Assembly: GCA_003222035.1 (NCBI GenBank)
Contig: QHUS01000046.1
Span: forward strand, 4,299 to 68,298
Direction: 5' to 3'
Length of the DNA: 64,000 bases
Source of the DNA: Gemmatimonadota bacterium
Lineage (GTDB): Bacteria > Gemmatimonadota > Gemmatimonadetes > Gemmatimonadales > GWC2-71-9
The notes beneath the pieces were generated by a model. That model did no database searches, was not told where the DNA came from, and saw only the letters and a program-made list of their open reading frames with translations. Below, in pieces: positions 15,232 to 63,696 of this stretch. A program made the position numbers and the translations under genes. Position 1 is the first letter of the stretch. Every line of letters starts with the position of its first letter.

Positions 15232-16505
15232 GTTGCCCGCATGCGTCGCAGGTCGGCGAAGAACCGGGGATAGCTGATCGCAACGGATGCTCGCTCGGAG
15301 AGCCGCACGTCCGCTCCCGGAACGGTGCCAAGGACGGCAAACGCCATCGCCAGTCGGTGATCCCGCGCCGTCTCGACCCGGCCGCGCGGCGGCGTGCCCG
15401 TGCCGCAAACGAACAGGTCGTTGCCACGCGCCTCCGCCTCCCCGCCCACCGCGCGCAAGTTCGCGGCGATGAGCTCGAGCCGATTGCTCTCCTTCACCCG
15501 CAGCTCGCCCACTTCGCGGAACACCGTTTCCACTCCACGCGCCGCGCGGCTCGCCAGGACCCCGAGGATGGGGACTTCGTCGACCAGGGTCGGGATCTCG
15601 GCGGCACCCACTTCCGTGCCCCGGAGCCGAGCGGGTCGCACGACCAGGTCCGCGACCGGCTCACCGCCTTCGTTCCGCAGGTTCACTCGCTCGACGTGCG
15701 CCCCCATGCGTTCGAGCACCACGAGGAATCCCGTGCGGGTGGGGTTCACGCCGACGTTTTCGATGAGCAGCTCGCCGGCTTCGGCCAACACGGCCGCGGC
15801 GACGAGAAATGCCGCCGACGATGCGTCTCCGGGAACGGCAAGACGGAACGACGGCACGCTGCCACGACGCTCGGGGGGGCGGGGCTCGAACACGATCGCG
15901 CCGTCGCGCTCGTGCAGGCCCAGCCCCAGGTGCACCAGGAGCCGCTCGGTGTGGTCGCGGGAACGATACGGTTCGCGGATCGTGACGCTCACGTTGCCCG
16001 TGAGTCCCGCGAGCAGGAGCGCGCTCTTGATCTGGGCGCTGGCGACCGGGGTGGTGTAGGTCAGCGGGCGCAGGCGACCGCCGCGAATCCTGAGCGGAAG
16101 AGCGTCGCCGCCTTTCTCGGTGATCTCGGCACCCATCGTACGAAGCGGCTCGGTGACCCGCCGCATCGGGCGACGGCGCAGGGACGCGTCACCCGTCAAC
16201 GTCGCCGCGAATCGTTGCCCGGCGAGGATCCCGAGCATGAGACGCGCCGTCGTGCCGGAGTTGCCGCAATTCAAGCGGGAAGCGGGATGCGTGATGCGGG
16301 ATGCGTGCACGCTTACCGGGCCAGCCGCCCGGATGGGTGATATGTCCGCGCCGAGCTGACGCAGCACTCTTGCGGTCGACTTGACGTCCTCACCGGTGAG
16401 CAGACCGCTCAGTTCGCTCGTCCCACGGGCGAGAGCGGCGAGCATCAAGACGCGATGCGAGATGCTCTTGTCCCCCGGCGGTCGGACGACGCCCTGCACT
16501 TTCAC
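15228..16505 (-). CDS. aroA: 3-phosphoshikimate 1-carboxyvinyltransferase (EPSP synthase)
   Basis: PGDKSISHRVLMLAALA...GNSGTTARLM motifs. I prefer the GTG start at 16503-16505 (GTGA overlap with the tyrA stop). The alternative is the ATG at 16547. Confidence 0.85.
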   Translation of the reverse strand: MKVQGVVRPPGDKSISHRVLMLAALARGTSELSGLLTGEDVKSTARVLRQLGADISPIRAAGPVSVHASRITHPASRLNCGNSGTTARLMLGILAGQRFAATLTGDASLRRRPMRRVTEPLRTMGAEITEKGGDALPLRIRGGRLRPLTYTTPVASAQIKSALLLAGLTGNVSVTIREPYRSRDHTERLLVHLGLGLHERDGAIVFEPRPPERRGSVPSFRLAVPGDASSAAFLVAAAVLAEAGELLIENVGVNPTRTGFLVVLERMGAHVERVNLRNEGGEPVADLVVRPARLRGTEVGAAEIPTLVDEVPILGVLASRAARGVETVFREVGELRVKESNRLELIAANLRAVGGEAEARGNDLFVCGTGTPPRGRVETARDHRLAMAFAVLGTVPGADVRLSERASVAISYPRFFADLRRMRAT

Positions 16506-24958: not shown

Positions 24959-25044
24959 TGCCGAGGGCAGGACTCGAACCTGCACGGGGATCGCTCCCCA
25001 AGGGATTTTAAGTCCCTTGCGTCTACCGATTTCGCCACCCCGGC
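24959..25044 (-). tRNA. tRNA-Leu (anticodon UAA), long variable arm, CCA not encoded
   Basis: Minus strand: GCCGGGGTGGCGAAATCGGTAGACGCAAGGGACTTAAAATCCCTTGGGGAGCGATCCCCGTGCAGGTTCGAGTCCTGCCCTCGGCA. It has a 7-bp acceptor stem, an anticodon loop CTTAAAA, a T-loop TTCGAGT and discriminator A, and is followed by CCT. Confidence 0.9.
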
Positions 25045-39410: not shown

Positions 39411-41763
39411 GCTCACCCTCCAGGGCCTTGAGACCCTGCTCCAGCACGGTATCCACCTCGCGCTCACGCAGGGTGCGCGCCGGATCGCGGAACGTGCAGT
39501 GCCAGGCTACGCTGCGGTACCCCTCCGGGATCCCGGACCCGCGATACTCGTCGAACACCTCGAGCCGCTCGAGCAGGCTCCCCGCGGCCCGCCGCAGGAC
39601 GTCGGACACCTGGGCCGCGCTGACGCCTGGCGGGAGCAAAAGCGCGAGGTCGCGCTCAACGGGCGGTTGCGGCGGCAGCGGCCGGTAGGTGATGATCCCG
39701 CGCTCGGCCAGCGTCAACCGCACCTCGAAGCCGAACAGCGGCGCCGCCCACACGGGGGCGTCGGCCTCGAGGGGTCCCGCCCAGCCCAACACGGCCCCGT
39801 TCCCCCGTTCCACCGCCTCCCACCCTACCGCACCGCCTGCCAGCGGCTGCAGGTCGCAGGACGGCGCGGCGGCGGCCACCGCTAACTCAAAGTGGTACTT
39901 CAGGTCCCATATGTCCATATCAGGTACTTTAGCACCATCGGACCAGTGGGGCGGCCTGCGGGCCCCGGTCAGAACCCCCGCTACCGAAGTCCACTCGTCG
40001 ATCGCACTCGCCCTCCGCCGAAACACTGTTCCCACCTCGAAGAGTCGCACGTCGCGGTTGCGATTCGCCCAATTGTGCTCAACGCGCCCGATCAAGCCGG
40101 GAATGAGGCGCCGCCGCAGGTGGGCTTCCTCCACCGACATGGGGTTGAGGATCGCCACCGCGTCGGGCCCGTCCGCGGATCCGATGGGCAAGGTGCGAGC
40201 CTCGAGCAGGCCGGCGGAGGCGAGTGCGTCTCGGACCCGCGCGCGAGCCCGCTCTTCGGGGGCATCGGGCACGGTGCCGGGCCGGTAGGCGCGCAACTCG
40301 TCGGGGAACGCGTCGTACCCCTTGAGGCGGGCGACTTCCTCGATCAGGTCGACCTCGCGCGTTACGTCGGGGCGCCACCCCGGCACCTGGACGGCCAGGC
40401 GAGCGTCCTTCGGCGCCACGAAGAAGCCGACGCTGGTGAGCAGCCGCTCTACCTCGGAGCGCTCGATCGACACGCCGAGCAGCGTGTCCACGCGGTCGGG
40501 GCGAAGGAAGATCGTGCGCTCCTGCTGCGGCTCCGGCCACAAGTCCAGCGCGGGCGCTCGGATCTCGCCTCCTGCCACAGCCGCGATCAGCTCGACCGCC
40601 CGCCGCAACGCGTCGGGCATGCCGAGCATGTCGATGCCGCGCTCGAACCGGTAGCTCGACTCGCTCGACAGCCCGAGCGCCCGGCGGGTGCGTCTGATGC
40701 GGGTCGGTTGGAAGTAGGCGCACTCGAGCACCAGATCGGTGGTGTCGCTGCTCACCTCCGATTCCGCGCTCCCCATCACGCCCGCAACGATGGTGGGCCG
40801 CTCGGCATCGCAGATCGCGGTCATTTCGGTCGTGAGTGTGCGGGTCGCGCCGTCGAGCGTGACGATTTTCTCGCCGGGCCGCGCGCGCCGCACGACGACG
40901 GCCGGTCCGCGCAGCTTGGCGAGGTCGAACGCGTGCAGCGGCTGGTTCAGCTCGAAGAGGATGTAGTTGGTTGCGTCGACCACGTTGTTGATCGGCCGCT
41001 GTCCCACCGCGGTGAGCCGCTCGGCAAGCCAGGCGGGACTGCTCCCCACCCGGACGCCCCGGATCACCGCGATCATGTAGCGCGGGGCGCCCTCGGGATC
41101 TTCCAGGCGAACCTCCACGCCGTCCACGACGCCCCGGTCGGACTGTCGGACGCTCGGACGGTCGGTCAGTGCCTTCGCTCCCGGGATGACGGGAAGCTTT
41201 ACGGGGGCACCAAGCGACGCGCCGAGCTCTCGGGCGACGCCCTTGTGACACAGGAGATCCGGCCGGTTCGCGGCCACGTCGATCACGATCTGGTGGTCGG
41301 CGAGGCCGACGGCGTCAACGAACCGGGTCCCCGGCGGGGCGGCGGTATCGAGCTCGAGAATGCCCGACTGATCGGCGCCGAGCCCGAGCTCCTTGGCCGA
41401 GCAGAGCATGCCATTCGATTCCACGCCACGGATCTTTTTGCGCTCGAGCTTGAGCCCTCCCGGCAGCACGGCACCGACAGGAGCGTAGGGATAGGTCTTG
41501 CCGGCCTGTACGTTCGGCGCGCCGCACACGACTTCGACCGGCCCGTTCGCGCCTCCGGCGTCGACGAGACAGAGAGACAGGCGATCGGCGTCGGGATGCT
41601 TTTTCACCTCGAGCACGCGCGCGATGCGGACGTCGCCCAGCTCCTGGTGGAGCGGGATCACGGCATCTACCGCGGCGACGTGCAGTGTCAGCCGCTCGGC
41701 GGCGTCGCGCGCGTCGAGGGGCCGGTTGAGGAGCGCCTCGAGCCAGCGGCGCGAAACGATCAT
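39385..41763 (-). CDS. pheT: phenylalanine-tRNA ligase beta subunit
   Basis: N-terminal tRNA-binding domain (HPDADRLSLC), then B3/4, B5 and FDX-ACB regions. ATGA overlap with pheS. Confidence 0.95.
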   Translation of the reverse strand: MIVSRRWLEALLNRPLDARDAAERLTLHVAAVDAVIPLHQELGDVRIARVLEVKKHPDADRLSLCLVDAGGANGPVEVVCGAPNVQAGKTYPYAPVGAVLPGGLKLERKKIRGVESNGMLCSAKELGLGADQSGILELDTAAPPGTRFVDAVGLADHQIVIDVAANRPDLLCHKGVARELGASLGAPVKLPVIPGAKALTDRPSVRQSDRGVVDGVEVRLEDPEGAPRYMIAVIRGVRVGSSPAWLAERLTAVGQRPINNVVDATNYILFELNQPLHAFDLAKLRGPAVVVRRARPGEKIVTLDGATRTLTTEMTAICDAERPTIVAGVMGSAESEVSSDTTDLVLECAYFQPTRIRRTRRALGLSSESSYRFERGIDMLGMPDALRRAVELIAAVAGGEIRAPALDLWPEPQQERTIFLRPDRVDTLLGVSIERSEVERLLTSVGFFVAPKDARLAVQVPGWRPDVTREVDLIEEVARLKGYDAFPDELRAYRPGTVPDAPEERARARVRDALASAGLLEARTLPIGSADGPDAVAILNPMSVEEAHLRRRLIPGLIGRVEHNWANRNRDVRLFEVGTVFRRRASAIDEWTSVAGVLTGARRPPHWSDGAKVPDMDIWDLKYHFELAVAAAAPSCDLQPLAGGAVGWEAVERGNGAVLGWAGPLEADAPVWAAPLFGFEVRLTLAERGIITYRPLPPQPPVERDLALLLPPGVSAAQVSDVLRRAAGSLLERLEVFDEYRGSGIPEGYRSVAWHCTFRDPARTLREREVDTVLEQGLKALEGELGVRRRES
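41137..41168. repeat. 4x8-nt array GTCGGACN inside pheT (in frame)
   Basis: GTCGGACT GTCGGACG CTCGGACG GTCGGTCA. It encodes TDRPSVRQSDR. Confidence 0.8.
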
Positions 41764-44003: not shown

Positions 44004-44022
44004 ACCGGGAATCCGCGTGGCG

Positions 44023-44083
44023 TCGTCCGTCAACCCGTGTTCCGTCGTCCGTGAGTTGCGGATGGCGGATTACGGAAGACGGA
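44023..44083. repeat. imperfect hairpin of heptamer arrays (TCCGNNN / NNNCGGA) in the infC leader
   Basis: The right arm has CGGA at an exact 7-nt period (44059, 44066, 44073, 44080): TTGCGGA TGGCGGA TTACGGA AGACGGA. The left arm is ..GTCCGTCAACCCGTGTTCCGTCGTCCGT. The loop is about 6 nt. Confidence 0.7.
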
Positions 44084-44175
44084 CCATGCTCTCAGAACCC
44101 TAGAGCACTCCCGACAGCGGGAGGCAGCAGGTGAGGCGCACGCGGCGCCCGCTTGCCGTGTTGTCGGGGCTAATC

Positions 44176-45078
44176 TTAGCCCGCCTTGAGCGGGTCCACA
44201 AGCCCGAACGCCTTGCCGTCGCGCCCCAGACGACCGGCGACGATATCGGGATCGTGCTCGAACAGCAGCAACCATCCTTCCGCTTCGGCCCGCGCGTACA
44301 GGCGGCGCTTCGACTCGAGCGTCACGAGCGGCTCCAGGTCGTAGCCCATGATCCAGGGGAGCGGGAGATGGGCACTGGTAGGCACAAGGTCCGCCAGGAA
44401 GCACGCCCGTTCGCCCGCGCTCTCGACCAGCACTGACTGATGATACGGCACGTGCCCCGGCGTCGGCATGCACCGGATCCCGGGCACGACCTCCGCGTCA
44501 CCATCGATGGGCGTGAACGGCACCGGCTCGAAATTATGTGGCAGATAGCTCGCCGCCGTGCGCTCGTTGGTGTGGCGCGCGAATTCGAGCTCGCGTTTTT
44601 GGACCACGTACGTCGCCTTCGGGAAGCTCAACTTCGTCGGACGGTCGGACGGTGGGACGGTCGGACCGTCCGGCGCTTGGTCGGCCGGCTCGCGATAGGT
44701 ATTGCCGCCGGCGTGATCGAAATGGAGATGGGTATTGATCACCCAGCGAACGTCATCGGGCCGGTATCGGAGCTCCGCGAGCGCGTCTTCGATCTGGGTC
44801 GGCCCGTGCTTCCCCTGATTCACGACGCCGTAGATGTCCCTAAACTTGTCGTCCTCTTTGTTCCCCAGGCCCGTGTCGACCAGGACGAGCCCGTCGCCGT
44901 GCTCGATCAGGAGGCAGCGCAGCGCGAGGGGGATGCGATTGCGATCGTCGGCGGGGATGCGGCGTTGCCACAGCGGCTTCGGTACCACGCCGAACATCGC
45001 GCCGCCGTCGAGGTGCTGCCTGCCGCCCTCCAGGGCATGACACTTCAGTCGACCGACCGTGAGAGACGTGTGGGGCAT
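44176..45078 (-). CDS. MBL-fold metallo-hydrolase
   Basis: LVDTGLG...THLHFDHAGGN (HxHxDH) motifs. The ATG at 45076-45078 shares one base with the upstream TGA. Confidence 0.8.
   Translation of the reverse strand: MPHTSLTVGRLKCHALEGGRQHLDGGAMFGVVPKPLWQRRIPADDRNRIPLALRCLLIEHGDGLVLVDTGLGNKEDDKFRDIYGVVNQGKHGPTQIEDALAELRYRPDDVRWVINTHLHFDHAGGNTYREPADQAPDGPTVPPSDRPTKLSFPKATYVVQKRELEFARHTNERTAASYLPHNFEPVPFTPIDGDAEVVPGIRCMPTPGHVPYHQSVLVESAGERACFLADLVPTSAHLPLPWIMGYDLEPLVTLESKRRLYARAEAEGWLLLFEHDPDIVAGRLGRDGKAFGLVDPLKAG
44636..44675. repeat. 5x8-nt array GTCGGACN inside the MBL-fold hydrolase gene (in frame)
   Basis: GTCGGACG GTCGGACG GTGGGACG GTCGGACC GTCCGGCG. It encodes PDGPTVPPSDRPT. Confidence 0.8.
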
Positions 45079-45713: not shown

Positions 45714-46941
45714 CGCGCCGGAGCGGCAACGTCATGCACCGGGGGCCGCCGCCCCCCCGCACCAGCTCGCTTCCCTCCATGGTGATCACGGCGCGTGCAC
45801 CCCCACCGTCGTCGAAGGTCTCCTCGCCCGCCTGGAGGTCTACCGCCGCCACGGTCTTGAACCCGGCGTGCTCGAGCTCGCGGAGCGTGGCTTCGTTGCG
45901 CGCGTAGGTCAACGCGACACCGGGCCGGACGGTGAAGAAGTTGCACGCCGACGACCACTGCTCCCGCTCTTGCAGCGCGCGGTCCGAGCCCCCGCAGAAG
46001 ATCGGCTCGAGAGGATGATCCACCGCCTGCATCGCCGCGAAGAAATTGGGCATCTCCTTCACACCCTTCGATTTCTTGCGGCGGTGCAGCACGGCGAGGC
46101 GCTCCGGTCCCACGAAGTGCGGCGGATAGATGCAGCACAGGTCGCGGTCCAGTTGCGTGAAGATCATGTCCAGGTGAATGGCGGTGCGCTCGTTCGGCAG
46201 CACGACGACGATCACGTCCTTCACGCCGCAATGCTCGAATACCAGGTCGCACAGATGATCGAGGGCCGCTGGGCTGGAGCGCTCACTGAAGCCGAGCAGC
46301 AGGAGATCGGGGCGTACCGGGTGCACATCCCCCCCCTCCAGCGTGTAGTTGTTCCGCTTCTCCTCCGACCCGTCGTACAGGATGCCGGCGTTCTCCAGAC
46401 AGGGATGGTAGCGGAACAGCGCCTTGATGAGCAGCTCCTCGGTCCAGCGCACCCCGTACCGCATCGAGCCAATGATCGAGTGCTCGCCGATCACGATCCC
46501 CACGTCGCGCGTGAAGAACAGATTAGGGAGGGGGGGGAGCGCGTACCCCGTCTCGTTGAGCGCGCGGGCGATCGGCCCGGCGTCTTCCAGGGCGCCCTCG
46601 ACCATGACGCCGACGAGCGCTTCCGGGGAGAGCGCCGCGAGCTGCTTCGCCAGCGCGTCGGACGACACCACCTCGAGCGCGCGCGTTACGAGGAACTCGC
46701 GCACGTCCGGGCGCGCGACCAGCTCCGTCAGGAGGGTCCGGACCTCGTAGACCTGCGCGAACCGCTCGAGCACCGCCACGAAGCGGTGATGCTCGCGCTG
46801 CGCGAGCTCCAGGTCTATGATGTCGTCGTAGAGATAGTCTTCGCGGCTACCGGGCGTGACCGCCACCAGCTCGCGGCCGGGCGTGTGGACCAGGACGGCC
46901 CGCAGCGAGCCGATCTCCGACGTGACGTGGACGCGCGCCAT
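45703..46941 (-). CDS. arcA: arginine deiminase family protein
   Basis: MARVHVTSEIGSLRAVLVHTPGRE N-terminus and the C-terminal GGGGPRCMTLPL catalytic-Cys motif. Confidence 0.8.
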   Translation of the reverse strand: MARVHVTSEIGSLRAVLVHTPGRELVAVTPGSREDYLYDDIIDLELAQREHHRFVAVLERFAQVYEVRTLLTELVARPDVREFLVTRALEVVSSDALAKQLAALSPEALVGVMVEGALEDAGPIARALNETGYALPPLPNLFFTRDVGIVIGEHSIIGSMRYGVRWTEELLIKALFRYHPCLENAGILYDGSEEKRNNYTLEGGDVHPVRPDLLLLGFSERSSPAALDHLCDLVFEHCGVKDVIVVVLPNERTAIHLDMIFTQLDRDLCCIYPPHFVGPERLAVLHRRKKSKGVKEMPNFFAAMQAVDHPLEPIFCGGSDRALQEREQWSSACNFFTVRPGVALTYARNEATLRELEHAGFKTVAAVDLQAGEETFDDGGGARAVITMEGSELVRGGGGPRCMTLPLRRDDL

Positions 46942-46943
46942 GG

Positions 46944-47095
46944 GGCGGAATCTAACGCGGAACGCGGAAGGCGGAGCCGAAGTCGGAACGCGGAAGGCGG
47001 AACGCGGAACAGCAAGGAAAGGTCGCTCGGCTTGCCGCCCTCGGAGCGAAGTTCGCTTGACTGTTCCGCATTCCGCGTTCCGAGTTCCGAGTTCT
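46944..47095. repeat. heptamer-armed inverted-repeat element, copy A (GCGGAAN units / loop / NTTCCGC units)
   Basis: CGGAA recurs at 46958, 46965, (46972, 46978), 46984, 46991, 46998 and 47005. TTCCG recurs at 47064, 47071, 47078 and 47085. The inner 26 nt of the arms are 23/26 complementary, with a 52-nt loop. The element fills the rex-stop to arcA-ATG gap. Confidence 0.9.
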
Positions 47096-47714
47096 AGCGG
47101 TTCGCCAGCGCGAAGCTCAGCGTCTCGAGCTCCAACGCCATGTTCACCGACTTGACGACCACGTCGGCGGGGACCGCGAGCTGGACGGGCGCGAAGTTGA
47201 GAATCGCCTTCACCCCGGCGTGCACCAGGCGGTCGACCACCTCCTGGGCGGACTCCGCCGGGGTCACCACGATCGCGATGTCGCTCGGCTCCTTGCCGAG
47301 GTCGCCGTCGAGGTGCCGGATGTCACGCACCACGAGCCCATTCCAGCGCGAGCCGATTTTCTTGGGGTCCTTGTCGTAGATGGCCGCGACGTGGAAGCCG
47401 CGTTGCCGAAACCCCGGGTACTGGACCAGCGCGCTGCCGATCCGCCCCGCGCCGACGAGGACGACGCGGTAGGTGCGGCGCAGCCCCAGGATATCGCGGA
47501 TCCGGGCCGTGAGCTCCGAGACGGAGTAGCCGAGGCCGCGTTTGCCGAACGAGCCGAAGAACGAGAGGTCTTTGCGAACCTGAGCGGACGTGGTGCCGCC
47601 GCGCCGGGCCAACTCGGCCGAGGAGATGGTCGTCTGGCCCTGCGCAGCGAAGTGTTCGAGGAACCGGAGATAAAGGGAGAGCCGTCGCACCGTGCTCTCG
47701 GAGATCTTCCGCAT
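47094..47714 (-). CDS. rex: redox-sensing transcriptional repressor Rex
   Basis: RRLSLYLRFLEHF...SSAELARRGGTTSAQVRKDLSFFGSFGKRGLGY winged helix, plus the Rossmann motif VVLVGAGRIGSAL. Confidence 0.9.
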   Translation of the reverse strand: MRKISESTVRRLSLYLRFLEHFAAQGQTTISSAELARRGGTTSAQVRKDLSFFGSFGKRGLGYSVSELTARIRDILGLRRTYRVVLVGAGRIGSALVQYPGFRQRGFHVAAIYDKDPKKIGSRWNGLVVRDIRHLDGDLGKEPSDIAIVVTPAESAQEVVDRLVHAGVKAILNFAPVQLAVPADVVVKSVNMALELETLSFALANR

Positions 47715-47731
47715 TGTGAATTATTTCACAA
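47714..47731. promoter_or_regulatory. Rex operator (ROP), a perfect palindrome TTGTGAA-TTAT-TTCACAA
   Basis: Exact match to the TTGTGAAnnnnTTCACAA Rex consensus. It spans from the rex ATG (47712-47714) to beyond the ksgA TGA (47726-47728). Confidence 0.8.
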
Positions 47732-48550
47732 TCGTGCGCTCCAACGCAAGAGTCGGGCGAAGATTTCCGGCGCCAACGTCTCGGGACGCGCCGCGGGATC
47801 GAGCCCGAGCGCCCCGAGTCCTTCCTCGACCTGTGCGGCCGGGCGCCCTGTCGCACCCAGCAGCACGTTGCGCAGCTGTTTGCGGCGGCGCGCGAAGCAG
47901 GCGGTGACGAACCGGCGAAACGCCGCGAGCTCGGCGACCGCGACGAGCGGATGGGCGAGCGGCGTGAGACGGAGCAGCGCGCTCGCGACGTTGGGGCGTG
48001 GCGTGAACGCGCCGGCGCGAACCGGGAACAGTTTCTCCACGCGACACACGGCTTGCACACCGACCGAGGGTGCGCCGTACGTCTTCGAGCCCGGCCGCGC
48101 CGCGATGCGATCGGCCACTTCGGCCTGGACGAGAAACACGATGCACGCCGGGAGCGGCGGCGTGAGGGCTTTGTCGATCAGCGGGGAGGTGATGGCGTAG
48201 GGGATGTTGCCGATCACCTTCAATTGCGGATTGGCGATTGCGGATTGCGGATTGGCAAGGCAAGCTACGGCCAGCGCATGCCAGTCCTGCTTGAGGGCGT
48301 CCCCCGCCACGACGTCCACATTGCCCAATCCCCCATCCGCAATCCGCAATCCGCAATCATGAGCCAGCCGGCGGTCCCGTTCGATGGCGATTACGTAACG
48401 TACGCGAGGGGCGAGGACGGCCGTCAGGCTCCCCTCCCCCGCCCCGATCTCGACCACGACGTCCCCGGGCGTCGGATCGAGGGCGTCGACGATGCGCTGC
48501 AGGATGTTCCGGTCGGTGAGGAAGTGCTGGCCGAGGGGGGGACGGGTCAC
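47726..48550 (-). CDS. rsmA: 16S rRNA (adenine1518/1519-N6)-dimethyltransferase
   Basis: LGQHFL, VVEIGAGEGSLT and IGNIPYAITSP motifs. GTGA overlap with the upstream stop. Contains two in-frame heptamer arrays (see the repeat feature). Confidence 0.9.
   Translation of the reverse strand: MTRPPLGQHFLTDRNILQRIVDALDPTPGDVVVEIGAGEGSLTAVLAPRVRYVIAIERDRRLAHDCGLRIADGGLGNVDVVAGDALKQDWHALAVACLANPQSAIANPQLKVIGNIPYAITSPLIDKALTPPLPACIVFLVQAEVADRIAARPGSKTYGAPSVGVQAVCRVEKLFPVRAGAFTPRPNVASALLRLTPLAHPLVAVAELAAFRRFVTACFARRRKQLRNVLLGATGRPAAQVEEGLGALGLDPAARPETLAPEIFARLLRWSARL
48224..48356. repeat. pair of inverted 5x7-nt arrays (TTGCGGA / TCCGCAA) inside the ksgA coding sequence
   Basis: 48224-48258 is TTGCGGA TTGGCGA TTGCGGA TTGCGGA TTGGCAA. 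48322-48356 is TGCCCAA TCCCCCA TCCGCAA TCCGCAA TCCGCAA. They are 29/35 complementary with a 63-nt spacer. Both are in frame (peptides LANPQSAIANPQ and DCGLRIADGGL). Confidence 0.9.
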
Positions 48551-51780: not shown

Positions 51781-52256
51781 TTGCCGAATTTCGTTTGAAG
51801 CGCCTTCCGGACCGCGGGATGCACGAGCCGCGACACGTCGCCGCCGAAGCGCGCGACTTCACGCACCAGGCTCGAGCTCAGGTAGGTGAGGTCGAACGCC
51901 GGCACGAGAAACACCGTCTCGACGCCAGGAGCGAGGTTCCGGTTCATGAGCGCCATTTGAAACTCGTACTCGAAGTCGCTCACCGCCCGCAGGCCCCGGA
52001 CGATGAGCGTCGCGCCCGCCGCGCGGGCGAAGTCGGCGAGCAGGCCGTCGAACGAGCGGATCTCGATACCCGGGTCCTCCACCGCCTGCCGGATGAGGGC
52101 CACCCGCTCGTCGAGCGTGAACAGGGGCTGTTTGCCGACGTTCACGGCCACCGCCACGATCACGCGGTCGCTGAAGGCGCGCGCCCGGCGGATGAGATCC
52201 TCGTGGCCGCGCGTGATCGGATCGAAAGAGCCGGGATAGATCGCGACGCGGGTCAC
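51777..52256 (-). CDS. coaD: phosphopantetheine adenylyltransferase
   Basis: IYPGSFDPITRGHEDL...RGLRAVSDFEYE motifs. Confidence 0.9.
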   Translation of the reverse strand: MTRVAIYPGSFDPITRGHEDLIRRARAFSDRVIVAVAVNVGKQPLFTLDERVALIRQAVEDPGIEIRSFDGLLADFARAAGATLIVRGLRAVSDFEYEFQMALMNRNLAPGVETVFLVPAFDLTYLSSSLVREVARFGGDVSRLVHPAVRKALQTKFGK

Positions 52257-52777
52257 GGCGCGTAGATGAAGGTCACGGCGGTATCCCCGTAGCGCCGTGT
52301 GTCGTCACCCGGAATCGGCTGGTCGGCCGGGTGCTCGATCGAGACGATGCGCGCAAACGGGTTCACCCGGAACATCGCGACGAGGCGCGCGGCATGCCCG
52401 CTCGCGTACGGCGGGTCGGCGAAGGCGACGTCGTACTGGCCGGGGTGCAGCTGTTCCGCGAACCGGACGGCGTCCACGCGATGCACGGCGGTGCGGTCCT
52501 CGACCTTGAGCGTGGTGATGTTGGCCTTGAGGGTGGCCAGCGCGGATCGGTGGGTCTCCACGAAGTCGGCGGACAGGGCCCCGCGGGACAGCGCCTCGAG
52601 CCCGAGCGCTCCCGAGCCCGCGAACAGGTCCAGGACGCGGGCGCCGCGCACCGGGCGTTGCAGGATCGAAAACCACGCTTCGCGCACGCGGTCGCCGGTG
52701 GGGCGAACCGCATCCCCGGCGGGCGTCTTCAGGCGGCGACCCTTGAACTCGCCGGCGATTATCCGAACGAAACCCAA
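52253..52777 (-). CDS. rsmD: 16S rRNA (guanine966-N2)-methyltransferase
   Basis: ORF 52253..53452 trimmed to TTG 52775-52777 (..FVRIIAGEFKGRRL...DLFAGSGALGLEALSRGA...DPPY). The upstream part of the ORF reads through the repeat element and recJ. Confidence 0.8.
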   Translation of the reverse strand: MGFVRIIAGEFKGRRLKTPAGDAVRPTGDRVREAWFSILQRPVRGARVLDLFAGSGALGLEALSRGALSADFVETHRSALATLKANITTLKVEDRTAVHRVDAVRFAEQLHPGQYDVAFADPPYASGHAARLVAMFRVNPFARIVSIEHPADQPIPGDDTRRYGDTAVTFIYAP

Positions 52778-52795
52778 CCCCGCCCCCTTCCCAGC

Positions 52796-52895
52796 GCGGA
52801 AGTCGGAACGCGGAACGCGGAACAGAAATGGGAGGTCGCTCGGCGCGCGACGCCGGTTTCGATGTTCCGCGTTTCGCCTTCCGCGTTCCGCGTTC
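52796..52895. repeat. heptamer-armed inverted-repeat element, copy B (same family as 46944..47095)
   Basis: GCGGAAG TCGGAAC GCGGAAC GCGGAAC, a 40-nt loop, then GTTCCGC GTTTCGC CTTCCGC GTTCCGC GTTC. The arms are 24/28 complementary. The loop shares AGGTCGCTCGGC with copy A. The element ends inside the recJ TGA. Confidence 0.9.
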
Positions 52896-54600
52896 ACACA
52901 CTCGGCGCCATCGCCGCCACCCGTGCCTGCAGCGTCTCGCGTCCCTGCCATTCGTCGCGCTCTAGACGGAACGCCACATCCAGCCGATCGGCGAGCCAGT
53001 GGTCGGGCACGGCATCGGCCACCTGGAACGCGATCGCGGGGAGCGCGCCCGACTCGTCGTCGAGGGTGAAGCGCAGGTGATTGGTTCCCACGCGGCGGGC
53101 GCCCACCGCGCGCGCGTGCCGCACGCCGAACACCGGCGCCGGGTTCCCCGGACCGCACGGCTCCAGGTAGCGGATCAGCTTCTCCAGCTCCTCGCTGACG
53201 AGCCCCAGGGGCAGCTCCAAGTCCACCCGTTGAGCGGGGACCAGGTCGTCGGGGTCCAGAAGGTCGCGTGCCACCGCGAGAAACGCAACACGGAAGGCGT
53301 CGTAATGCTCTCGCCGGATGGTGAGGCCCGCCGCCATCGTATGCCCACCGTATTTCTCCAGGTGATGCCCAACGCGCTGCAGGGCGGCGTGCAGGTCGAA
53401 CCCCGCCACGCTCCGGCCGGAGCCACGTCCCACATCGCTCCCCTCGTCCCACCCGATCAAGAAGGTCGGCCGCCCGTACCGCTCGACGAGCCGGGATGCC
53501 ACGATCCCGATGACGCCCGGGTGCCAGGCGTCGGCGGCGAGGACCAACGCATGGTCCTCGGGTCGCAGGACTCGTTCGGCCAGCTCGACGGCCTCGTCGA
53601 GGATGCGCTGATCGAGCTCCTGACGGCGCGCATTCAGGGTCTCGAGCTCGCGTGCGATGGCGGCCGCCACGTCGGGATCGTCCGAAAGCAGCAGCCGCAG
53701 CCCGTCCATCGCGTCGCCGATCCGTCCCGCCGCGTTGAGGCGAGGCGCCAAGATGAAGCCGACGTGTCCCGCCTTGATCGGTTTGCCCCCGAGTCCCGCG
53801 GTGTCCACCAGCGCCCGCACGCCCGTCCAGTGCGAGGCCGCCAGCAGCTTGAGGCCGTGCCGTACCAGGATGCGGTTTTCACCGGTGAGGGGCACCACGT
53901 CGGCGACCGTGGCCAGCGCCACCAGGTCGAGGAAATGGAGCGGGAGGTGGGGTGACACGCCGAGCGCCGGCACCAGCGCTTGCGCCAGCTTGAAGGCAAC
54001 GCCGGTGCCGCAGAGATCCTTGTCCACGGACGGGCAGTCGGCGCGCCGCGGGTCGAGCACGGCCGACGCCGGGGGCAGCGCGTCGCCGGGAAGATGGTGG
54101 TCGGTGACGATGACCTCGATGCCGGCCGCGCGAGCGGCGCGGACCGCGTCGATCGCGGTGATACCGCAGTCGCAGGTGATGATCAGGCCGGCGCCCACCC
54201 GCTGGGCCTCCTTCAGTCCCGCGGGCCCGAAGTCGTACCCGTCCCGCAGGCGGTGCGGAACGAACGCGTGGGCGCGCCCGCCCACACTCGAGAGCACCCG
54301 GGTGAGCAGCGCGGACGCGCACTGGCCATCGACGTCGTAATCGCCGTGCACCAGGATCGGCACGCTCCCCCGGACGGCCGCGGCGATCAGGTCGACGGCC
54401 CGCGGCATGTCGGCCCACGCGCCGGGGTCGGACAGGCGCTCCAGGTCGGGCCGGAGGAACGCCTTGGCGTGCTCGGGCGCGCCCAGGCCGCGCTGGACGA
54501 GGATGGCGGCGAGCGGTTCGGGGATGTGGAGGTCTGAGGCCAGGGCCGCGGTGAGCCCGGGATCGGCAGGCGGGGCGACCGACCAGCGGGCGCTAATCAT
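52894..54600 (-). CDS. recJ: single-stranded-DNA-specific exonuclease RecJ
   Basis: ORF trimmed to ATG 54598-54600 (ATGA overlap). VHGDYDVDGQ, ITCDCG, VTDHH and YGGHTMAAG motifs. Confidence 0.9.
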   Translation of the reverse strand: MISARWSVAPPADPGLTAALASDLHIPEPLAAILVQRGLGAPEHAKAFLRPDLERLSDPGAWADMPRAVDLIAAAVRGSVPILVHGDYDVDGQCASALLTRVLSSVGGRAHAFVPHRLRDGYDFGPAGLKEAQRVGAGLIITCDCGITAIDAVRAARAAGIEVIVTDHHLPGDALPPASAVLDPRRADCPSVDKDLCGTGVAFKLAQALVPALGVSPHLPLHFLDLVALATVADVVPLTGENRILVRHGLKLLAASHWTGVRALVDTAGLGGKPIKAGHVGFILAPRLNAAGRIGDAMDGLRLLLSDDPDVAAAIARELETLNARRQELDQRILDEAVELAERVLRPEDHALVLAADAWHPGVIGIVASRLVERYGRPTFLIGWDEGSDVGRGSGRSVAGFDLHAALQRVGHHLEKYGGHTMAAGLTIRREHYDAFRVAFLAVARDLLDPDDLVPAQRVDLELPLGLVSEELEKLIRYLEPCGPGNPAPVFGVRHARAVGARRVGTNHLRFTLDDESGALPAIAFQVADAVPDHWLADRLDVAFRLERDEWQGRETLQARVAAMAPSV

Positions 54601-55301: not shown

Positions 55302-57027
55302 CTCTCCTCCTCTTCGCGATCTTGTAGCGCGGGTAACGCTTGCGGAGCTCGTCGAACACGCGGCGCTTCTCCGCAATCAGGGATACCTGTCGCTCGGGGC
55401 TTTCGAACGGCAGCTGGTCGTCGAGCTGCTCCAGGTGCCGCTCGAGCCGCCGGGCTTCCATCCAGCTCACGGCCAGCTCGTACATTTCGTTCGGATCACG
55501 CCCGCCGAGCCCCTCCGCCTTGAGCAGCTCGTAGGCCCGCGCGGAGGTGTCGTCGAGCGCCAGGACCGCGTCGTCGGCGACGCTCTCGAACACGGCGCGG
55601 TACGGCGCGAACTCGACTTCCTCGGGGTCGACGGCGTCGGTCACGCGACTCTTCCAGGGTTCGCCCTCGAGCATCAGGAGCAGGAGGGCTTTCTCGGCGC
55701 TGGCGGGCAGGACGGGGGAGGACGGGGGAGGAGGGTGGAGGACGGTGGAGGGGCCACGCGCCCCGACTTCGCGCTCGAGAACGTCCTTCCGCACCCCGGC
55801 CGCCTCCGCTGCCCGGGAGATGTAGAGCTCCCGGGTAATGGGATCTTTCGCCGCCCGAATCGTCGGCAGGAGGCGATCGAGGGCTCGGCGCCGACCCGGT
55901 AGGGTACCGAAGAATCCTTTGCGGTCGAGGATCTGGATCTTCCGCTCCAGCACGTCGACCGCGTCCTCGAGGATCTGCTCGAGCGCCGCAGCTCCCCCCT
56001 TCTGCACGAGCGTGTCGGGGTCCTCGCCGCCGGGGAGCGTGGCCACGCTGACGCGCAACCCTTCGCGCAGCAGCTCGTCGCCCGCCCGGAAGGTGGCGCG
56101 CAGGCCGGCCTCGTCGGAGTCGTACAAGAGGATCACCTGCGGCGCGTGGCGTTTCACCAGCTGGGCCTGGTCCGGCGTGAGCCCGGTCCCGAGCGGCGCC
56201 CCCACCTCCTCGATACCGGCGAGCGACAGACGAAGCACGTCGAAATACCCCTCGACCAGGATGGCGCGCTCCGCCTTGCGCATCGCGTGCTTCGCGACGT
56301 GCAGGTTGTAGAGCAGTTGCCCTTTGTGGAAGATCGGGGTGTCCGGGGAGTTGAGATACTTGGGCTCTCCTTCGCCGAGAATGCGACCGCCGAACCCGAC
56401 CACGCGGCCCCGCAGGTCGTGAATTGGGAAGAGCAAACGACCGCGGGACCGGGGCGCGAGCGTGCCGTCCTCGCGTTTAGCCAACAGACCCGCCTCGAGG
56501 AGCACTTCGTCACGCACGCCCAAGACTTTCATCGCCTCGAGGAACGCCTTCCCCTTCGGGGCGTACCCGAGGCCCAGCGGCAGCACGGTGTCGAGATCGA
56601 GGCGGCGGGTCTTCAGGTAATCGCGAGCGATTTGGGCTTCGGGACTGTCGCGCAACTGGTGGGCGAACCAATCCGCCGCCGCGGCGACGGCGCTATAGAG
56701 CGGCTCGCGCGGATCGGGACCGGTGGGGCCGCGCTCGGGGATCGCGATTCCCACGCGACGCGCCACCTCGCGGACCGCGCTGGGATAGTCCATGCCGAGC
56801 TTCTTCATCAAGAACGTGAAGACGTCACCGCCGGCGTGACACACGAAGCAGTAGAACATCCCCTTCCGGGGGATGACCGCGAAGTTGCGATGCGCCCCGC
56901 CGTGAAACGGACACGCCGCCCGGTAATCGGATCCGGTGCGTTTCAACTCGACGTGCTCGCCGATGATCCCGACCAGGTCGGCCGCTTCGCGGACCTGCTC
57001 GATCACGTCGTCGGGAATCAGGCTCAC
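55285..57027 (-). CDS. dnaG: DNA primase
   Basis: Zinc finger CPFHGGAHRNFAV...CFVCHAGGD and TOPRIM (VEGYFD...DSDEAG). GTGA overlap with mutS2. Confidence 0.9.
   Translation of the reverse strand: MSLIPDDVIEQVREAADLVGIIGEHVELKRTGSDYRAACPFHGGAHRNFAVIPRKGMFYCFVCHAGGDVFTFLMKKLGMDYPSAVREVARRVGIAIPERGPTGPDPREPLYSAVAAAADWFAHQLRDSPEAQIARDYLKTRRLDLDTVLPLGLGYAPKGKAFLEAMKVLGVRDEVLLEAGLLAKREDGTLAPRSRGRLLFPIHDLRGRVVGFGGRILGEGEPKYLNSPDTPIFHKGQLLYNLHVAKHAMRKAERAILVEGYFDVLRLSLAGIEEVGAPLGTGLTPDQAQLVKRHAPQVILLYDSDEAGLRATFRAGDELLREGLRVSVATLPGGEDPDTLVQKGGAAALEQILEDAVDVLERKIQILDRKGFFGTLPGRRRALDRLLPTIRAAKDPITRELYISRAAEAAGVRKDVLEREVGARGPSTVLHPPPPSSPVLPASAEKALLLLMLEGEPWKSRVTDAVDPEEVEFAPYRAVFESVADDAVLALDDTSARAYELLKAEGLGGRDPNEMYELAVSWMEARRLERHLEQLDDQLPFESPERQVSLIAEKRRVFDELRKRYPRYKIAKRRRGAPGP
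55711..55750. repeat. 4x10-nt array GA(C/G)GG(G/T)GGAG inside dnaG (in frame)
   Basis: GACGGGGGAG GACGGGGGAG GAGGGTGGAG GACGGTGGAG. It encodes STVLHPPPPSSPVL in the linker before the C-terminal domain. Confidence 0.85.
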
Positions 57028-59300
57028 GCGCGGAACTCCACGATGGTGACGCCATGGCCGCCCTGATTCGGCGGCGCAAAGCCGAAGCGCGTGACCCGTG
57101 AGTCGGCGGCGAGCCGCTCGTGCACGAACTGACGCAGGGCCCCGGTGCCCTTACCGTGAATTACGCGGAGATACGGCAAATCGGCCGACACGGCATCGTC
57201 GAGGGCCTTGACGAGCAGCGGCTCGGCTTCGGCAACGCGGAGGCCGATGAGGGAGATCTCCGCAGCCGCGTCGACGGACGGTGTGCGAGCGGTGGAGGGC
57301 GGTCGAGGATGGTGGAGGGCGGTGGAGGGAGAGGCCTTACGTGCGCCCTTCAGCTCGTCCAGCGACATCCACCCTTCCCTGGCCGGATCCCCGGCCGTTT
57401 CCCCGGCCGTTTGTTCGATTGCTTTTTCTACGAGCCGCCGCGCTTCTTTCGCCGTCGCCTCGTCTACCGCGGCGCGCGCCCGGCCGAGCGCTTCTTCGAC
57501 CTTGCGGCGGGCTTCCAGGAGGTAGGCCCGCGCCTGCTCGCGCGCCTGGCGTTCGAGCCCCGACGCGCGCGCCTTCACCTCCTGTTCGCGTGCGGCTACC
57601 TCGGTGGCCCGAGTCTCGACCCGCTCGGCGTCGGCACGGAGCGCAGAGTCGCGGGCGGCGAGCTCTTGCTCACGGGCCTCGAGCTCCCGGGCGCGCGCCT
57701 CGACGGAGGCCAGGAGCGCGTCGAGCGTGCGCTCGGCGCGGGGCACGGCGCGCTCCGCGATCTCCAGGACCGGAGCGGCGACCCCGAGGCGGCGCGCGAT
57801 AGCCAGCCCGTAGGAGCGACCCGGTACGCCCTTGAGCAGGCGATAGGTGGGGGTCAACGTCTCGGCGTCGAACTGAAGCGACGCGTTCACGATCCCCACG
57901 GTGTCGGCGGCGAGCTGCTTCAAGGCACCCAGGTGAGTTGTCGCCAGCGTCACCGCGCGACGACGGGTGAGCGTCTGCAATACCGCCGTCGCCAGCGCGC
58001 CACCCTCGGCCGGGTCGGTGCCGCTGCCGATCTCGTCGAGCAGAATCAGCGATCCGGCACCCGCCCGCTCGAGAATGTCTCGCAGGACAGCCACGTGAGC
58101 GGAAAACGTCGACAGGCTCGCCGCGATCGACTGCCGATCGCCGATGTCCGCGAACACGTCGGTGAATACCGGAAGCACGGATTGCGGACCGATGGGCGGG
58201 ATGATGCCGCTCTGCGCCATGAGGACGAGCAGGCCCACGGCTTTGATCAGCACCGTCTTGCCACCAGTGTTTGGCCCGGAGACCAGCACGGTGAATTCGT
58301 CAGGTGCCAGGACGAGATCGAAGGGAACGGCATCGGGGACGAGCAGCGGGTGCCTGCCGCCGCGGATCTCCAGCGCACCCGGGCCGATCGACGGCGCGAA
58401 GCCGTTCACCTCCACCGCGTACCGCGCCCGAGCGCACAGGTCGTCAAACGCGATGCACATCTCCCACGCGGCGGCAATCGCCTCGCTCTCGGGGCGCAAC
58501 AGCTCGGTGAGGTCCCGCAGCACCTGCAGGACTTCGCGCTGCTGCGCAACCTCCGCCGCGCGCAGGGCGTTGCCGAGCTCGATCACTTCCGGCGGCTCGA
58601 CGAACACCGTGGCCCGCGTCGCCGACTCGTCGTGCACGATCCCGCCGATCCGGGCCCGCGCCGTGCTGCGCACGGGGATCACGTAGCGGCCTTCGCGCAC
58701 CGTGACGGCGGCATCGGGCGCACGCTCGGCGGGATCGAGGGCGGCGAGCATGGCTTCGAGCTTCTGGACCAGCCGAGCGCGTGCGTCACGAACGGAGCGG
58801 CGGGCGTGCGCAAGCCCGCGCGACGCACCATCCAGCACCTGACCGTCGCCGTCGAGCGAAGCGGCAAGCCGCTGCTCCAGTGCCTTCGGGGGAAGCTTCA
58901 CGCGGAGCGCCGCGGTCCGCGGCGCGTCGGTCTCGAGGCGCGCGAGCTCGGCAGCCACGACGCGCGCGGCCACCAGCGTGCGGCCTACGCCTGCCAGCGC
59001 CGCTCCCTCGAGTGCGCTCCCCGGCACGCCCAGCAGCTCGACCACAGCCGCGATGTCGGGGACGGGCTCGGCGCGGATGCCGTCGTCGGTGAGCAGCAGG
59101 GCGGCGAGCTCCGCCACCTGCGCGAGGGCGTCGCGGACGGTGCCGGGATCGGTGGAGGGGACGCGGTGGGTCACGCGCGCGGCGCCAAGCGGTCCCACGG
59201 CATGCGCCGCCACTCGCTCCAGCGCGGCCGGGAACTCGAGCGTCTCCAGGACTCCAGGGGTCCGTGGGCTGGCGCCCGGCGTCGGTGCCCCACCGGTCAT
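57024..59300 (-). CDS. mutS2: endonuclease MutS2 (with an Smr domain)
   Basis: Walker A SGPNTGGKT, DEIGSGTDP, and the C-terminal Smr motif LRVIHGKGTGALR. Confidence 0.9.
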   Translation of the reverse strand: MTGGAPTPGASPRTPGVLETLEFPAALERVAAHAVGPLGAARVTHRVPSTDPGTVRDALAQVAELAALLLTDDGIRAEPVPDIAAVVELLGVPGSALEGAALAGVGRTLVAARVVAAELARLETDAPRTAALRVKLPPKALEQRLAASLDGDGQVLDGASRGLAHARRSVRDARARLVQKLEAMLAALDPAERAPDAAVTVREGRYVIPVRSTARARIGGIVHDESATRATVFVEPPEVIELGNALRAAEVAQQREVLQVLRDLTELLRPESEAIAAAWEMCIAFDDLCARARYAVEVNGFAPSIGPGALEIRGGRHPLLVPDAVPFDLVLAPDEFTVLVSGPNTGGKTVLIKAVGLLVLMAQSGIIPPIGPQSVLPVFTDVFADIGDRQSIAASLSTFSAHVAVLRDILERAGAGSLILLDEIGSGTDPAEGGALATAVLQTLTRRRAVTLATTHLGALKQLAADTVGIVNASLQFDAETLTPTYRLLKGVPGRSYGLAIARRLGVAAPVLEIAERAVPRAERTLDALLASVEARARELEAREQELAARDSALRADAERVETRATEVAAREQEVKARASGLERQAREQARAYLLEARRKVEEALGRARAAVDEATAKEARRLVEKAIEQTAGETAGDPAREGWMSLDELKGARKASPSTALHHPRPPSTARTPSVDAAAEISLIGLRVAEAEPLLVKALDDAVSADLPYLRVIHGKGTGALRQFVHERLAADSRVTRFGFAPPNQGGHGVTIVEFRA
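57291..57330. repeat. 4x10-nt array GGTGGAGGNN inside mutS2 (in frame)
   Basis: GGTGGAGGGC GGTCGAGGAT GGTGGAGGGC GGTGGAGGGA. It encodes PSTALHHPRPPST in the linker before the Smr domain. A perfect 12-nt tandem duplication (TCCCCGGCCGTT x2) lies at 57388-57411. Confidence 0.85.
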
Positions 59301-62497: not shown

Positions 62498-63641
62498 CGG
62501 TCAAGTCGCGGACCAGGGCGTCGAGGCGGAGCCAGCCTTCGGGCCTGCATACCAAGCGCTCATCCCTAATCTCCACCCAGCCCCGTTCCACCCACTGGTC
62601 GATAAAGGTCGGTAGAGGACGGTAGAGGTCCGTAAGGGGCAACCCCGCATCAGTGCGCAACGAGAGATAGAGGCGTTCCAGTTCCCGCTGCTCGTCGGTG
62701 AGCACTTCCTCGGCCGCGACGGCCGATCGGCCCGCAACGATGGTGCGTCGATACGCCTCCCACTCCCGCACGTTCCAGCGACGTGCGCGGCCGTCGAACG
62801 AATGCGCAGCGGGGCCGAGGCCCAGATAGGGCCGCCCGGACCAGTAGGCGGAGTTGTGTCGCGAGCGGCGGCCGTCGCGCGCGGCGTTCGAGACCTCATA
62901 GAACTGATAGCCGCTGGCCGTGAGCCGCTCGTGCGCCAGAAGATACTCGTCGGCGTATCGCTCGTCGTCGGGCATGGAGGCCGCCCCGCGCGAGATCCAA
63001 CGGGCGAGGGGGGTGCGTTCCTCGACCGCGAGGCCATACAGCGAGAGGTGATCGGGGTGCAGCGCGCACGCGAGATCGAGATCCCGCGCCCACTCCCGCC
63101 CCAGCTCGGCGGGCAACGCGAAGATCAAGTCCAGCGACACATTGCTGATTCCCGCGACGCGGAGCGACCGCACGGCCGTGCTGATCCGCGCCGCATCGTG
63201 CGAGCGATGCATCCATTTCAACACTCCATCGTCGAAGGACTGCGCTCCCAGTGACACGCGATTGATGCCGGCGCGCCGCCAAAGTTCCGCGGACTCGGGC
63301 GTTACGTCTTCGGGATTGGCTTCGAGCGTAACTTCAACGGCGTCACGCGGGGACGGAGGACTAGAAGACGTCGCGCGAAAGGCGTCGCGCAGAGACGTGA
63401 GCAAGGCCGAGATCGCGTCGGGCGGGAGGAGCGAAGGCGTGCCTCCGCCGAAGTAGATTGTCTCCAACCCTTGGCCGAAAACCCCGGGCTTGCGTCCGGG
63501 GTCAGCGGCCGCGACCAGCCGCAACTCCTCCAGCACGGCCTGCACATACTCGCGGGCCGGGATCCGCTTGCGGACCGCGATGGAGAAGTCGCAGTAGGAG
63601 CAGCGCCGGTGGCAGAAGGGGATGTGGAGATAAATATGCAT
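62478..63641 (-). CDS. hemW: radical SAM heme chaperone HemW (HemN-like, oxygen-independent coproporphyrinogen oxidase family)
   Basis: YLHIPFCHRRCSYCDF (CxxxCxxC) and YFGGGTPS motifs. Confidence 0.85.
   Translation of the reverse strand: MHIYLHIPFCHRRCSYCDFSIAVRKRIPAREYVQAVLEELRLVAAADPGRKPGVFGQGLETIYFGGGTPSLLPPDAISALLTSLRDAFRATSSSPPSPRDAVEVTLEANPEDVTPESAELWRRAGINRVSLGAQSFDDGVLKWMHRSHDAARISTAVRSLRVAGISNVSLDLIFALPAELGREWARDLDLACALHPDHLSLYGLAVEERTPLARWISRGAASMPDDERYADEYLLAHERLTASGYQFYEVSNAARDGRRSRHNSAYWSGRPYLGLGPAAHSFDGRARRWNVREWEAYRRTIVAGRSAVAAEEVLTDEQRELERLYLSLRTDAGLPLTDLYRPLPTFIDQWVERGWVEIRDERLVCRPEGWLRLDALVRDLTGAGRAS
62601..62640. repeat. 4x10-nt array GGTAGAGGNN-like inside hemW (in frame)
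   Basis: GATAAAGGTC GGTAGAGGAC GGTAGAGGTC CGTAAGGGGC. It encodes LTDLYRPLPTFI. Confidence 0.7.
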
Positions 63642-63661: not shown

Positions 63662-63696
63662 TTTCCGCAATCCCCAATTCGCACTCCGCACTTCAG
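63662..63696. repeat. single 5x7-nt array (NNTCCGC-like) abutting the dprA stop codon
   Basis: TTTCCGC AATCCCC AATTCGC ACTCCGC ACTTCAG. The last unit contains the dprA TGA (63693-63695). I found no inverted partner. Confidence 0.7.

Follow-up and report, generated by a model that had tools for sequence, protein, structure and literature searches.

The hairpin that separates recJ from rsmD in the stretch of DNA analysed here (the window, 64,000 nucleotides in full) is, judged from its sequence, a real member of an undescribed palindromic repeat family of uncultured soil Gemmatimonadales. This hairpin, copy B, is best explained as one copy of a dispersed palindromic repeat of about 100 nt that is specific to this soil clade, resembles REP/REPIN sequences or MITEs, and carries heptamer stems like those of STRR sequences; the probability of this reading is put at roughly 0.55. 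The kind of element is already known, namely an extragenic palindromic repeat with heptamer-repeat hairpin stems. The family is regarded as new because no known family fits it, and literature searches returned no description of it. Its unusual traits are a fixed loop with an asymmetric motif, a placement that abuts stop codons, the replacement of whole modules between strains, and a conserved in-frame hairpin within ksgA.

Copy B spans 52795-52895 and consists of two inverted arrays of about four GCGGAAN units around a loop of about 40 nt, in the plus-strand order CGCGGAAGTCGGAACGCGGAACGCGGAACAG, loop, TGTTCCGCGTTTCGCCTTCCGCGTTCCGCGTTC. A second copy in the window, copy A, lies between rex and the arginine deiminase (ADI) gene. 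The features of both are as follows.

52253-52777, minus strand: rsmD coding sequence (TIGR00095), with an inferred TTG start at 52777
52795-52824, minus strand: 3' arm of copy B, in transcript sense TGTTCCGCGTTCCGCGTTCCGACTTCCGCG
52825-52862, minus strand: loop of copy B, about 38-40 nt, with the family motif CCGAGCGACC followed by a 10-nt spacer and then the 3' arm
52833-52844: 12-mer of copy B, which contains the motif CCGAGCGACC as plus-strand GGTCGCTCGG
52863-52895, minus strand: 5' arm of copy B, in transcript sense GAACGCGGAACGCGGAAGGCGAAACGCGGAACA, its first bases overlapping the recJ stop
52894-54600, minus strand: recJ coding sequence, its 5' end inferred from 568-aa calls in strain contigs (L052-L056)
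46944-47095, minus strand: copy A, same family, between the rex stop (TAG, 47094-47096) and the arginine deiminase start (ATG, 46939-46941)
46979-47012 and 47061-47094: arms of copy A
47020-47031: 12-mer of copy A
46944-46976: extra units of copy A

A repeat finder places the arms of copy B at 52795-52824 and 52863-52892, 30 nt each and 87% complementary with 38 nt between them, and detects a period-7 array in both. A register-based count gives 23 Watson-Crick pairs out of 27 and a distance of 40 nt from GGAAC to GTTCC. Both agree with the architecture described in the first-pass annotation, as does the overlap of the distal arm with the recJ stop: the RecJ open reading frame, which carries the DHH, DHHA1, and RecJ_OB domains (Pfam), ends at TCA 52894-52896 (TGA on the minus strand). 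The same annotation had set the hairpin exactly between the recJ stop and the rsmD start. This is accurate on the recJ side and approximate on the rsmD side, since the inferred rsmD start lies 18 nt past the hairpin, beyond a G-rich, ribosome-binding-like stretch at 52778-52794. The assignment of RsmD itself scores 138.5 bits against TIGR00095. Its reading frame is open through the hairpin, and an N-terminal extension of RsmD was considered and rejected; the read-through is treated as chance because RsmD in relatives starts at M/V-RII. A small open reading frame starting at the ATGGAAGG in the loop was likewise discarded, as it is not conserved and its ATG is missing in copy A.

The sense (minus) strand RNA of copy B has a predicted folding energy of -58.6 kcal/mol (z = -4.1, with none of 200 shuffles as good), and that of copy A reaches -83.3 kcal/mol (z = -7.2). 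In the predicted fold of copy B, GUCGC pairs with GCGAC at the apex, a pairing found in only about half of the family copies. A conserved secondary structure of the loop was rejected, as RNAalifold retains only a 13-bp proximal stem. A scan for terminators and promoters found none at either copy; there is no T-tract, and the bases after the stem are G-rich. An Rfam scan of the window at gathering threshold assigned no family to either hairpin, and a scan of 52700-53000 at a permissive E-value gave only generic miRNA-precursor-like matches far below threshold. The sole gathering-level Rfam match in the window is a tRNA gene at 24959-25044 on the minus strand.

Copies A and B are of the same design, as the first-pass annotation had stated, with an arm string and an exact 12-mer in common. 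The 12-mer AGGTCGCTCGGC occurs in the window only at 47020-47031 and 52833-52844, so the possibility that it is common background does not hold across these 64 kb. The annotation was right that both loops contain it and wrong about where, as it starts 10 nt into the loop rather than at the beginning. The three-unit pattern GGAANGCGGAANGCGGAA, with up to three mismatches allowed, has 15 matches in the window against 1.4 expected, 13 of them within the two copies. A covariance model built from family copies, a check that the annotation had proposed, picks out only copy B (99.9 bits) and copy A (86 bits) in the window, and at least eight further diverged copies in the loci fetched from other genomes and metagenomes (L numbers).

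The string GAGCGACC, 10 nt, GTTCCGCGTTCC was common to all three copies then known and was therefore used as the scan pattern, in the form GAGCGACC-N9-11-GTTCCGCNTTCC, which represents the loop motif and the proximal arm and was matched exactly. Among 185,579 species genomes it has 44 matches. About 25 of these fall in about 11 Gemmatimonadetes/Gemmatimonadales metagenome-assembled genomes (MAGs), with six in AG41, four in AG20, three each in AG3 and SMAG_U8777, and the rest in others. All of the Gemmatimonadetes copies have the full two-arm architecture and the same master arm sequence, which supports the earlier proposal of a true repeat family rather than convergent hairpins. The remaining matches, about 19, come from other phyla, are armless, and correspond to the expected background; viral contigs gave no match to the pattern. 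Loop length is 40±1 nt for 24 of the 26 copies. When reverse-complemented, the consensus of the 3' arm is identical to that of the 5' arm, AACGCGGAAGTCGGAACGCGGAACGCGGAAC, and a master element with four units per arm can therefore be written as (T)GAACGCGGAAGTCGGAACGCGGAACGCGGAACA, about 21 variable nt, (G/C)CGAGCGACC, 10 nt, GTTCCGCGTTCCGCGTTCCGACTTCCGCGTTC, where the conservation of the motif and of the proximal 3' arm is partly imposed by the search pattern. The variable unit number claimed from the two window copies holds more widely: between loci and between species, arms range from 2 to about 8 units, most often 4. The loop motif is also found with GCGGATT arms (L003 14011-14114) and with GCGGAAT arms (L040).

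In 25 of 26 copies the element lies between co-directional genes, and the distance from the upstream stop to the first unit has a median of about 3 nt, often with TGA directly followed by ACGCGG, irrespective of loop direction. Judged by their C-terminal sequences, and not by family search, the genes upstream resemble housekeeping genes of diverse and unrelated kinds (DprA, PurC, FtsK, MurE, FabD, and ADI). An apparent bias in how the loop is oriented to transcription, 18 to 7 when every copy is counted, was set aside, since it falls to about 10 to 6 once orthologues are counted once as independent loci. Stem mismatches comprise 48 of transversion type against 6 G:U and 7 A:C and fall mainly at the two variable positions of the unit. 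With transversions dominant and G:U no commoner than A:C, the intergenic stems carry no RNA-specific signature, and selection at the RNA level through a G:U excess is unsupported.

Comparison with relatives shows that the element is not essential, since it is absent or decayed at orthologous sites. Rex homologues bear labels such as 'Gemmatimonadales bacterium', and several MAG and metagenome contigs are syntenic with this neighbourhood. The recJ-rsmD spacer is 16 nt in L003 and 24 nt in L006, is replaced by a 4-nt overlap of the genes in L005, and holds a degenerate hairpin within 65 nt in L001. The rex-ADI spacer of L005 contains a clearly homologous element with motif and spacing as in copy A, those of L001 and L006 are without a hairpin, and the loop is inverted at this orthologous site in L008 and L003. 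The window also contains an empty site: at the rlmD stop (about 7320-7335, minus strand) the stop codon overlaps the GTG of the next gene (GTGA), and a family element occupies the same junction in four other species (L009, L014, L026, and L047), where a segment of stop, ribosome-binding site, and start is apparently duplicated on both flanks. Direct repeats flanking the elements are ambiguous, with TGTGAA/TGGGAA (possibly TGNGAA) at copy B and the longer duplication of stop and ribosome-binding site at the rlmD site. Among the rlmD-site orthologues, identity is 87% in the 5' arm, 92% in the 3' arm, 63% in the variable loop, and 58% in the 10-nt spacer. Loop and spacer drift at about the level of third codon positions (57%, a figure taken from the downstream gene only, because a misplaced stop in L047 made the other coding value unreliable). 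Only the 5' arm value is free of ascertainment bias, because the motif and the proximal 3' arm belong to the search pattern. Set against a drifting loop and spacer, 87% identity of the 5' arm points to constraint or continual homogenisation and away from a dead selfish element.

Variation is also found among very close strains. Ten contigs encode a Rex protein that exactly matches that of the window, and their flanks are 99.4-99.9% identical to it, save for one segment of about 96% in each of L053 and L055. At the recJ-rsmD site, L051 carries the window's copy B allele, and L052, L053, L054, L055, L056, and L060 carry a different module of 104 nt, to which there are three further metagenome matches, at least one of which is the L055 record itself. 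This alternative module combines arms of four GCGGATT units each with a 20-nt loop, ACATGGAAGGTCGTGCGCC, in which a variant of the motif points the opposite way. The exchanged tract extends into the final codons of recJ and the start of rsmD and is sharply bounded. At copy A, unit composition shifts among strains and one unit shows a G/C change while the unit count stays constant. The suggestion that unit number differs between strains therefore does not stand for copy A, although variation between strains is real, as composition at copy A and as replacement of the whole allele at copy B. L061 (Ga0137408_1320264), which has GCGGAAT arms at the recJ-rsmD site, was rejected as a third strain allele, since it comes from another species, with about 80% identity. 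The contig probably arose by fold-back mis-assembly at the palindrome, because it aligns in both orientations around a midpoint near the recJ-rsmD hairpin. In the same set of contigs (L051-L060), with flanks 99.4-99.9% identical, a poly-C tract at the start of ksgA (48535-48541, codons 4-6) varies in length between C7 and about C27, mostly by multiples of three (poly-proline), with two contigs aberrant; this could be real hypervariability or homopolymer assembly error.

Period-7 arrays are a hallmark of these genomes. Defined by at least three units and at least 85% identity, they number 15 in the window (23 per 100 kb) and 132 in the Gemmatimonad loci, against none in 146 kb of unrelated loci. 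Arrays of periods 6, 9, and 12 are rare, so that enrichment is confined to period 7. About half of the period-7 arrays form inverted pairs and about half are solo, and many units have the form GCGGANN or GGGGANN. Solo period-7/8 arrays in the window include those at 1112-1132, 16273-16307, 41135-41165, 44634-44672, and 63664-63690, with units such as TTTCCCG, GCGGGAT, GGTCGGAC, and TCCGCAA. A short-loop hairpin of GTCGTCC and ACGGATG heptamers is found upstream of infC (44010-44085), with a similar one in AG41 (L017 4278-4336). Period-10 arrays (GGTGGAGGAC-like), all on the plus strand, lie at 30857-30900, 55702-55753, 57300-57331, and 62596-62630, and the dnaG array seems to specify, on the minus strand, a linker rich in proline. 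Inverted arrays also enclose longer sequences.

47726-48550, minus strand: ksgA coding sequence, with an in-frame hairpin of two arrays, 48229-48256 and 48328-48360 (region 48223-48360)
L011 4058-4487, L021 1130-1569, and L040 1645-2082: TIGR02436 cassette, with units GCGGAAC, GCGGATT, and GCGGAAT, respectively
8139-8172 and 8606-8631: inverted 8-mer arrays TCCGACTG and CAGTCGGA, 435 nt apart

The ksgA arrays code for native parts of the KsgA protein around its conserved NV..GDAL motif, in the region of the SAM motif, and are found at the same codons in nine species (orthologues in L001, L003, L005, L006, L008, L017, L020, and L042). Their units vary by species (GCGGAAC, GCGGATT, and GYGCGGA), and both arms switch in concert. 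A codon-anchored alignment of eight species gives 35 pairs, of which 86% are paired and 15 show compensatory double changes; none of 500 shuffles matches the observed covariation score, and slid controls are 29-46% paired. On the sense strand there are 20 G:U cells against 7 A:C, although 7 of those 20 derive from one terminal column. Because same-type arms enclose native ksgA coding sequence with such strong covariation, simple insertion cannot explain this hairpin. The TIGR02436 cassette, the only other arm-sharing element, consists of a four-helix-bundle gene inside inverted heptamer arms that stand about 370 nt from each other; three species have it at one orthologous site. Its 3' arm is translated as the C-terminus of the protein, and it encodes no transposase. 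The idea that the family loop is a remnant of the ends of this cassette was dropped, the similarity being too weak to call. An RlmD/RumA-like methyltransferase gene (ATG 8572, minus strand) has one of the 8-mer arrays in its 5' leader and the other in its coding sequence, at a variable loop.

Several known systems share part of this design. MITEs are short, non-autonomous-looking inverted-repeat elements present in many copies, and Rickettsia palindromic elements are in-frame palindromic insertions. The family resembles MITEs in its short inverted-repeat arms, its many copies, and its non-autonomous appearance, and differs in lacking a clear target-site duplication. The ksgA hairpin recalls the Rickettsia elements in being read in frame as protein, but its arms flank native conserved coding sequence and not an inserted block. 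In the intervening sequences of 23S rRNA, a long stem encloses either little or a TIGR02436 four-helix-bundle open reading frame. Heptamer arms likewise flank a TIGR02436 gene in L011, L021, and L040, although the elements described here lie in mRNA spacers and not in rRNA. A Rho-independent terminator shares the GC-rich stem-loop after a stop codon; the family differs in having no U-tract, a 40-nt loop, and positions inside operons whose genes overlap in relatives. As judged by context, integron attC sites do not fit, for the flanks are syntenic housekeeping genes in all relatives and no integrase is present.

The closest comparison for dispersal is with REP/REPIN sequences, which are RAYT-associated, and related tagged palindromes (PMC3733652). 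Like these, the family is multi-copy (two copies in 64 kb and up to six in the sampled contigs of one MAG), extragenic, palindromic, clade-specific, and located after stop codons within operons, and its hairpin of about 100 nt, which is similar to a REPIN doublet, is present or absent at orthologous sites. It differs in that its ends read (G)AACGCGG...CCGCGTT(C) with no GTAG or CGTC at the foot of the stem, its stems are tandem heptamer arrays rather than a unique palindrome, and an asymmetric loop motif is conserved. The stems find their counterpart in the STRR sequences of cyanobacteria, where hairpins of 7-bp repeats between hupS and hupL have been suggested to affect transcript stability or translational coupling (PMC2670836), and an STRR within rnpB is attributed to Vioque (1997), as cited in PMC2858038. 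Slippage has been proposed as the cause of heptanucleotide repeats in many bacteria (PMC4679880). The likeness to STRR lies in the 7-base units (period 7 on both arms here), in inverted arrays that form intercistronic hairpins, in a unit that differs between relatives while the structure stays, and in the ability to sit inside a functional gene. In contrast to STRR, the hosts are Gemmatimonadales MAGs (68% GC) and not heterocystous or filamentous cyanobacteria, and the family is discrete, with a fixed 40-nt loop, a conserved motif, a position beside stop codons, and allele replacement at the strain level.

In the mechanism favoured here, the element would be copied or recombined at the DNA level into many intercistronic spacers and would persist where it does little harm, right after one stop and before the next ribosome-binding site in an operon. 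Co-transcribed with recJ and rsmD, it would fold into a long hairpin (predicted, -59 kcal/mol) that brings the stop codon and the next start together, so that termination-reinitiation coupling of the kind seen in relatives with overlapping genes could survive. The element may survive just after operon stop codons because the folded hairpin keeps stop and start adjacent. Its arms would change through slippage of units and through conversion from arm to arm or copy to copy (concerted evolution), the loop could invert, and whole elements could be exchanged between strains through short recombination tracts. The element may be neutral or mildly functional, with possible effects on mRNA processing, stability, or coupling.

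The main rival is that the hairpin is a selected cis-acting RNA, either an RNase III-type processing site, a stabiliser of the upstream 3' end, or a tuner of recJ/rsmD coupling, with the loop motif as a contact for protein or RNA. This is possible, although a good deal less probable than the repeat-element reading, with which it is compatible rather than exclusive. The very stable predicted hairpins of copies A and B, the constant placement between stop and ribosome-binding site, and the conservation of the 5' arm above the neutral rate at orthologous sites are all consistent with it, as is the retention of the ksgA hairpin in nine species, with compensatory changes at 15 of 35 pairs in the eight aligned, a score reached by 0 of 500 shuffles, and G:U in excess of A:C on the sense strand (20 to 7). 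That excess is weakened, however, by the terminal column that supplies 7 of the 20 cells, and the intergenic stems show no such excess (6 against 7). The position of a TIGR02436 gene, from a protein family of 23S rRNA intervening sequences, between heptamer arms recalls intervening sequences excised by RNase III. A selected RNA sits poorly with a motif that occurs in both orientations (about 10 to 6 independent loci) and flips at one orthologous site, and with an element that is absent or decayed in relatives and replaced by a very different allele in strains with nearly identical flanks (99.4-99.9%), both alleles being present in one species. The inverted loops and the whole-module exchange between sharp boundaries would instead suit a role at the DNA level, in which the arrays bind a protein, such as a nucleoid-associated protein or a recombinase, and mark out segments that can be inverted or exchanged, the motif being the site of recognition or cleavage; stem mismatches free of RNA-type bias and the larger cargo between inverted arrays elsewhere (about 370 nt with the TIGR02436 gene and 435 nt of rlmD) fit as well. 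Such a role is nonetheless unlikely. A 7-bp period sets successive sites on different faces of B-DNA, a loop of 20-40 nt is too short for conventional recombinase-mediated inversion, ksgA and rlmD would be destroyed if their segments were inverted, the fetched loci show no recombinase in the vicinity, and hairpin-templated correction explains the covariation of the arms equally well.

That the hairpins arose independently, each grown in place by slippage, with the shared 12-mer a coincidence or background, is very improbable. The abundance of period-7 arrays with many different units, about half of them solo, would suit such convergence, and in many bacteria the long simple-sequence repeats are reported to be most often heptanucleotide ones (PMC4679880). 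However, the complete lack of heptamer arrays in the unrelated loci indicates that the background is not generic, the 12-mer is confined in 64 kb to copies A and B, and the motif, the fixed 10-nt spacer, the loop of 40±1 nt, and one master arm recur together in about 25 copies from about 11 genomes. A more speculative and also unlikely extension is that a genome-wide process writes and rewrites heptamer stems at fixed positions, even inside essential coding sequences such as ksgA and rlmD, and that the hairpins are regulatory or processing sites, perhaps for RNase III. In place of passive slippage, such rewriting could rely on a template acting in trans or on a nuclease or recombinase specific for hairpins. 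It is hinted at because GCGGATT, a new unit type, appears in one clade at several unrelated, pre-existing hairpins (ksgA, the TIGR02436 cassette, a copy with the loop motif, and the second recJ-rsmD allele); a sister clade has GCGGAAC at the ksgA and cassette sites.

The dispersed palindromic repeat remains the preferred reading of copy B, and with it a previously undescribed repeat family is defined in a poorly known, uncultured soil phylum. The family offers a natural system for the evolution of palindromes with tandem-repeat stems, including concerted change of the arms, inversion of the loop, and replacement of whole elements. In practical terms, the elements can serve as markers for strain typing and are a likely cause of assembly breaks, and gene callers read through them. 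The in-frame ksgA hairpin indicates that nucleic-acid pairing can dictate about 24 codons of a conserved enzyme across species. If the hairpins act as processing or coupling devices, they would add a lineage-specific layer of operon regulation.
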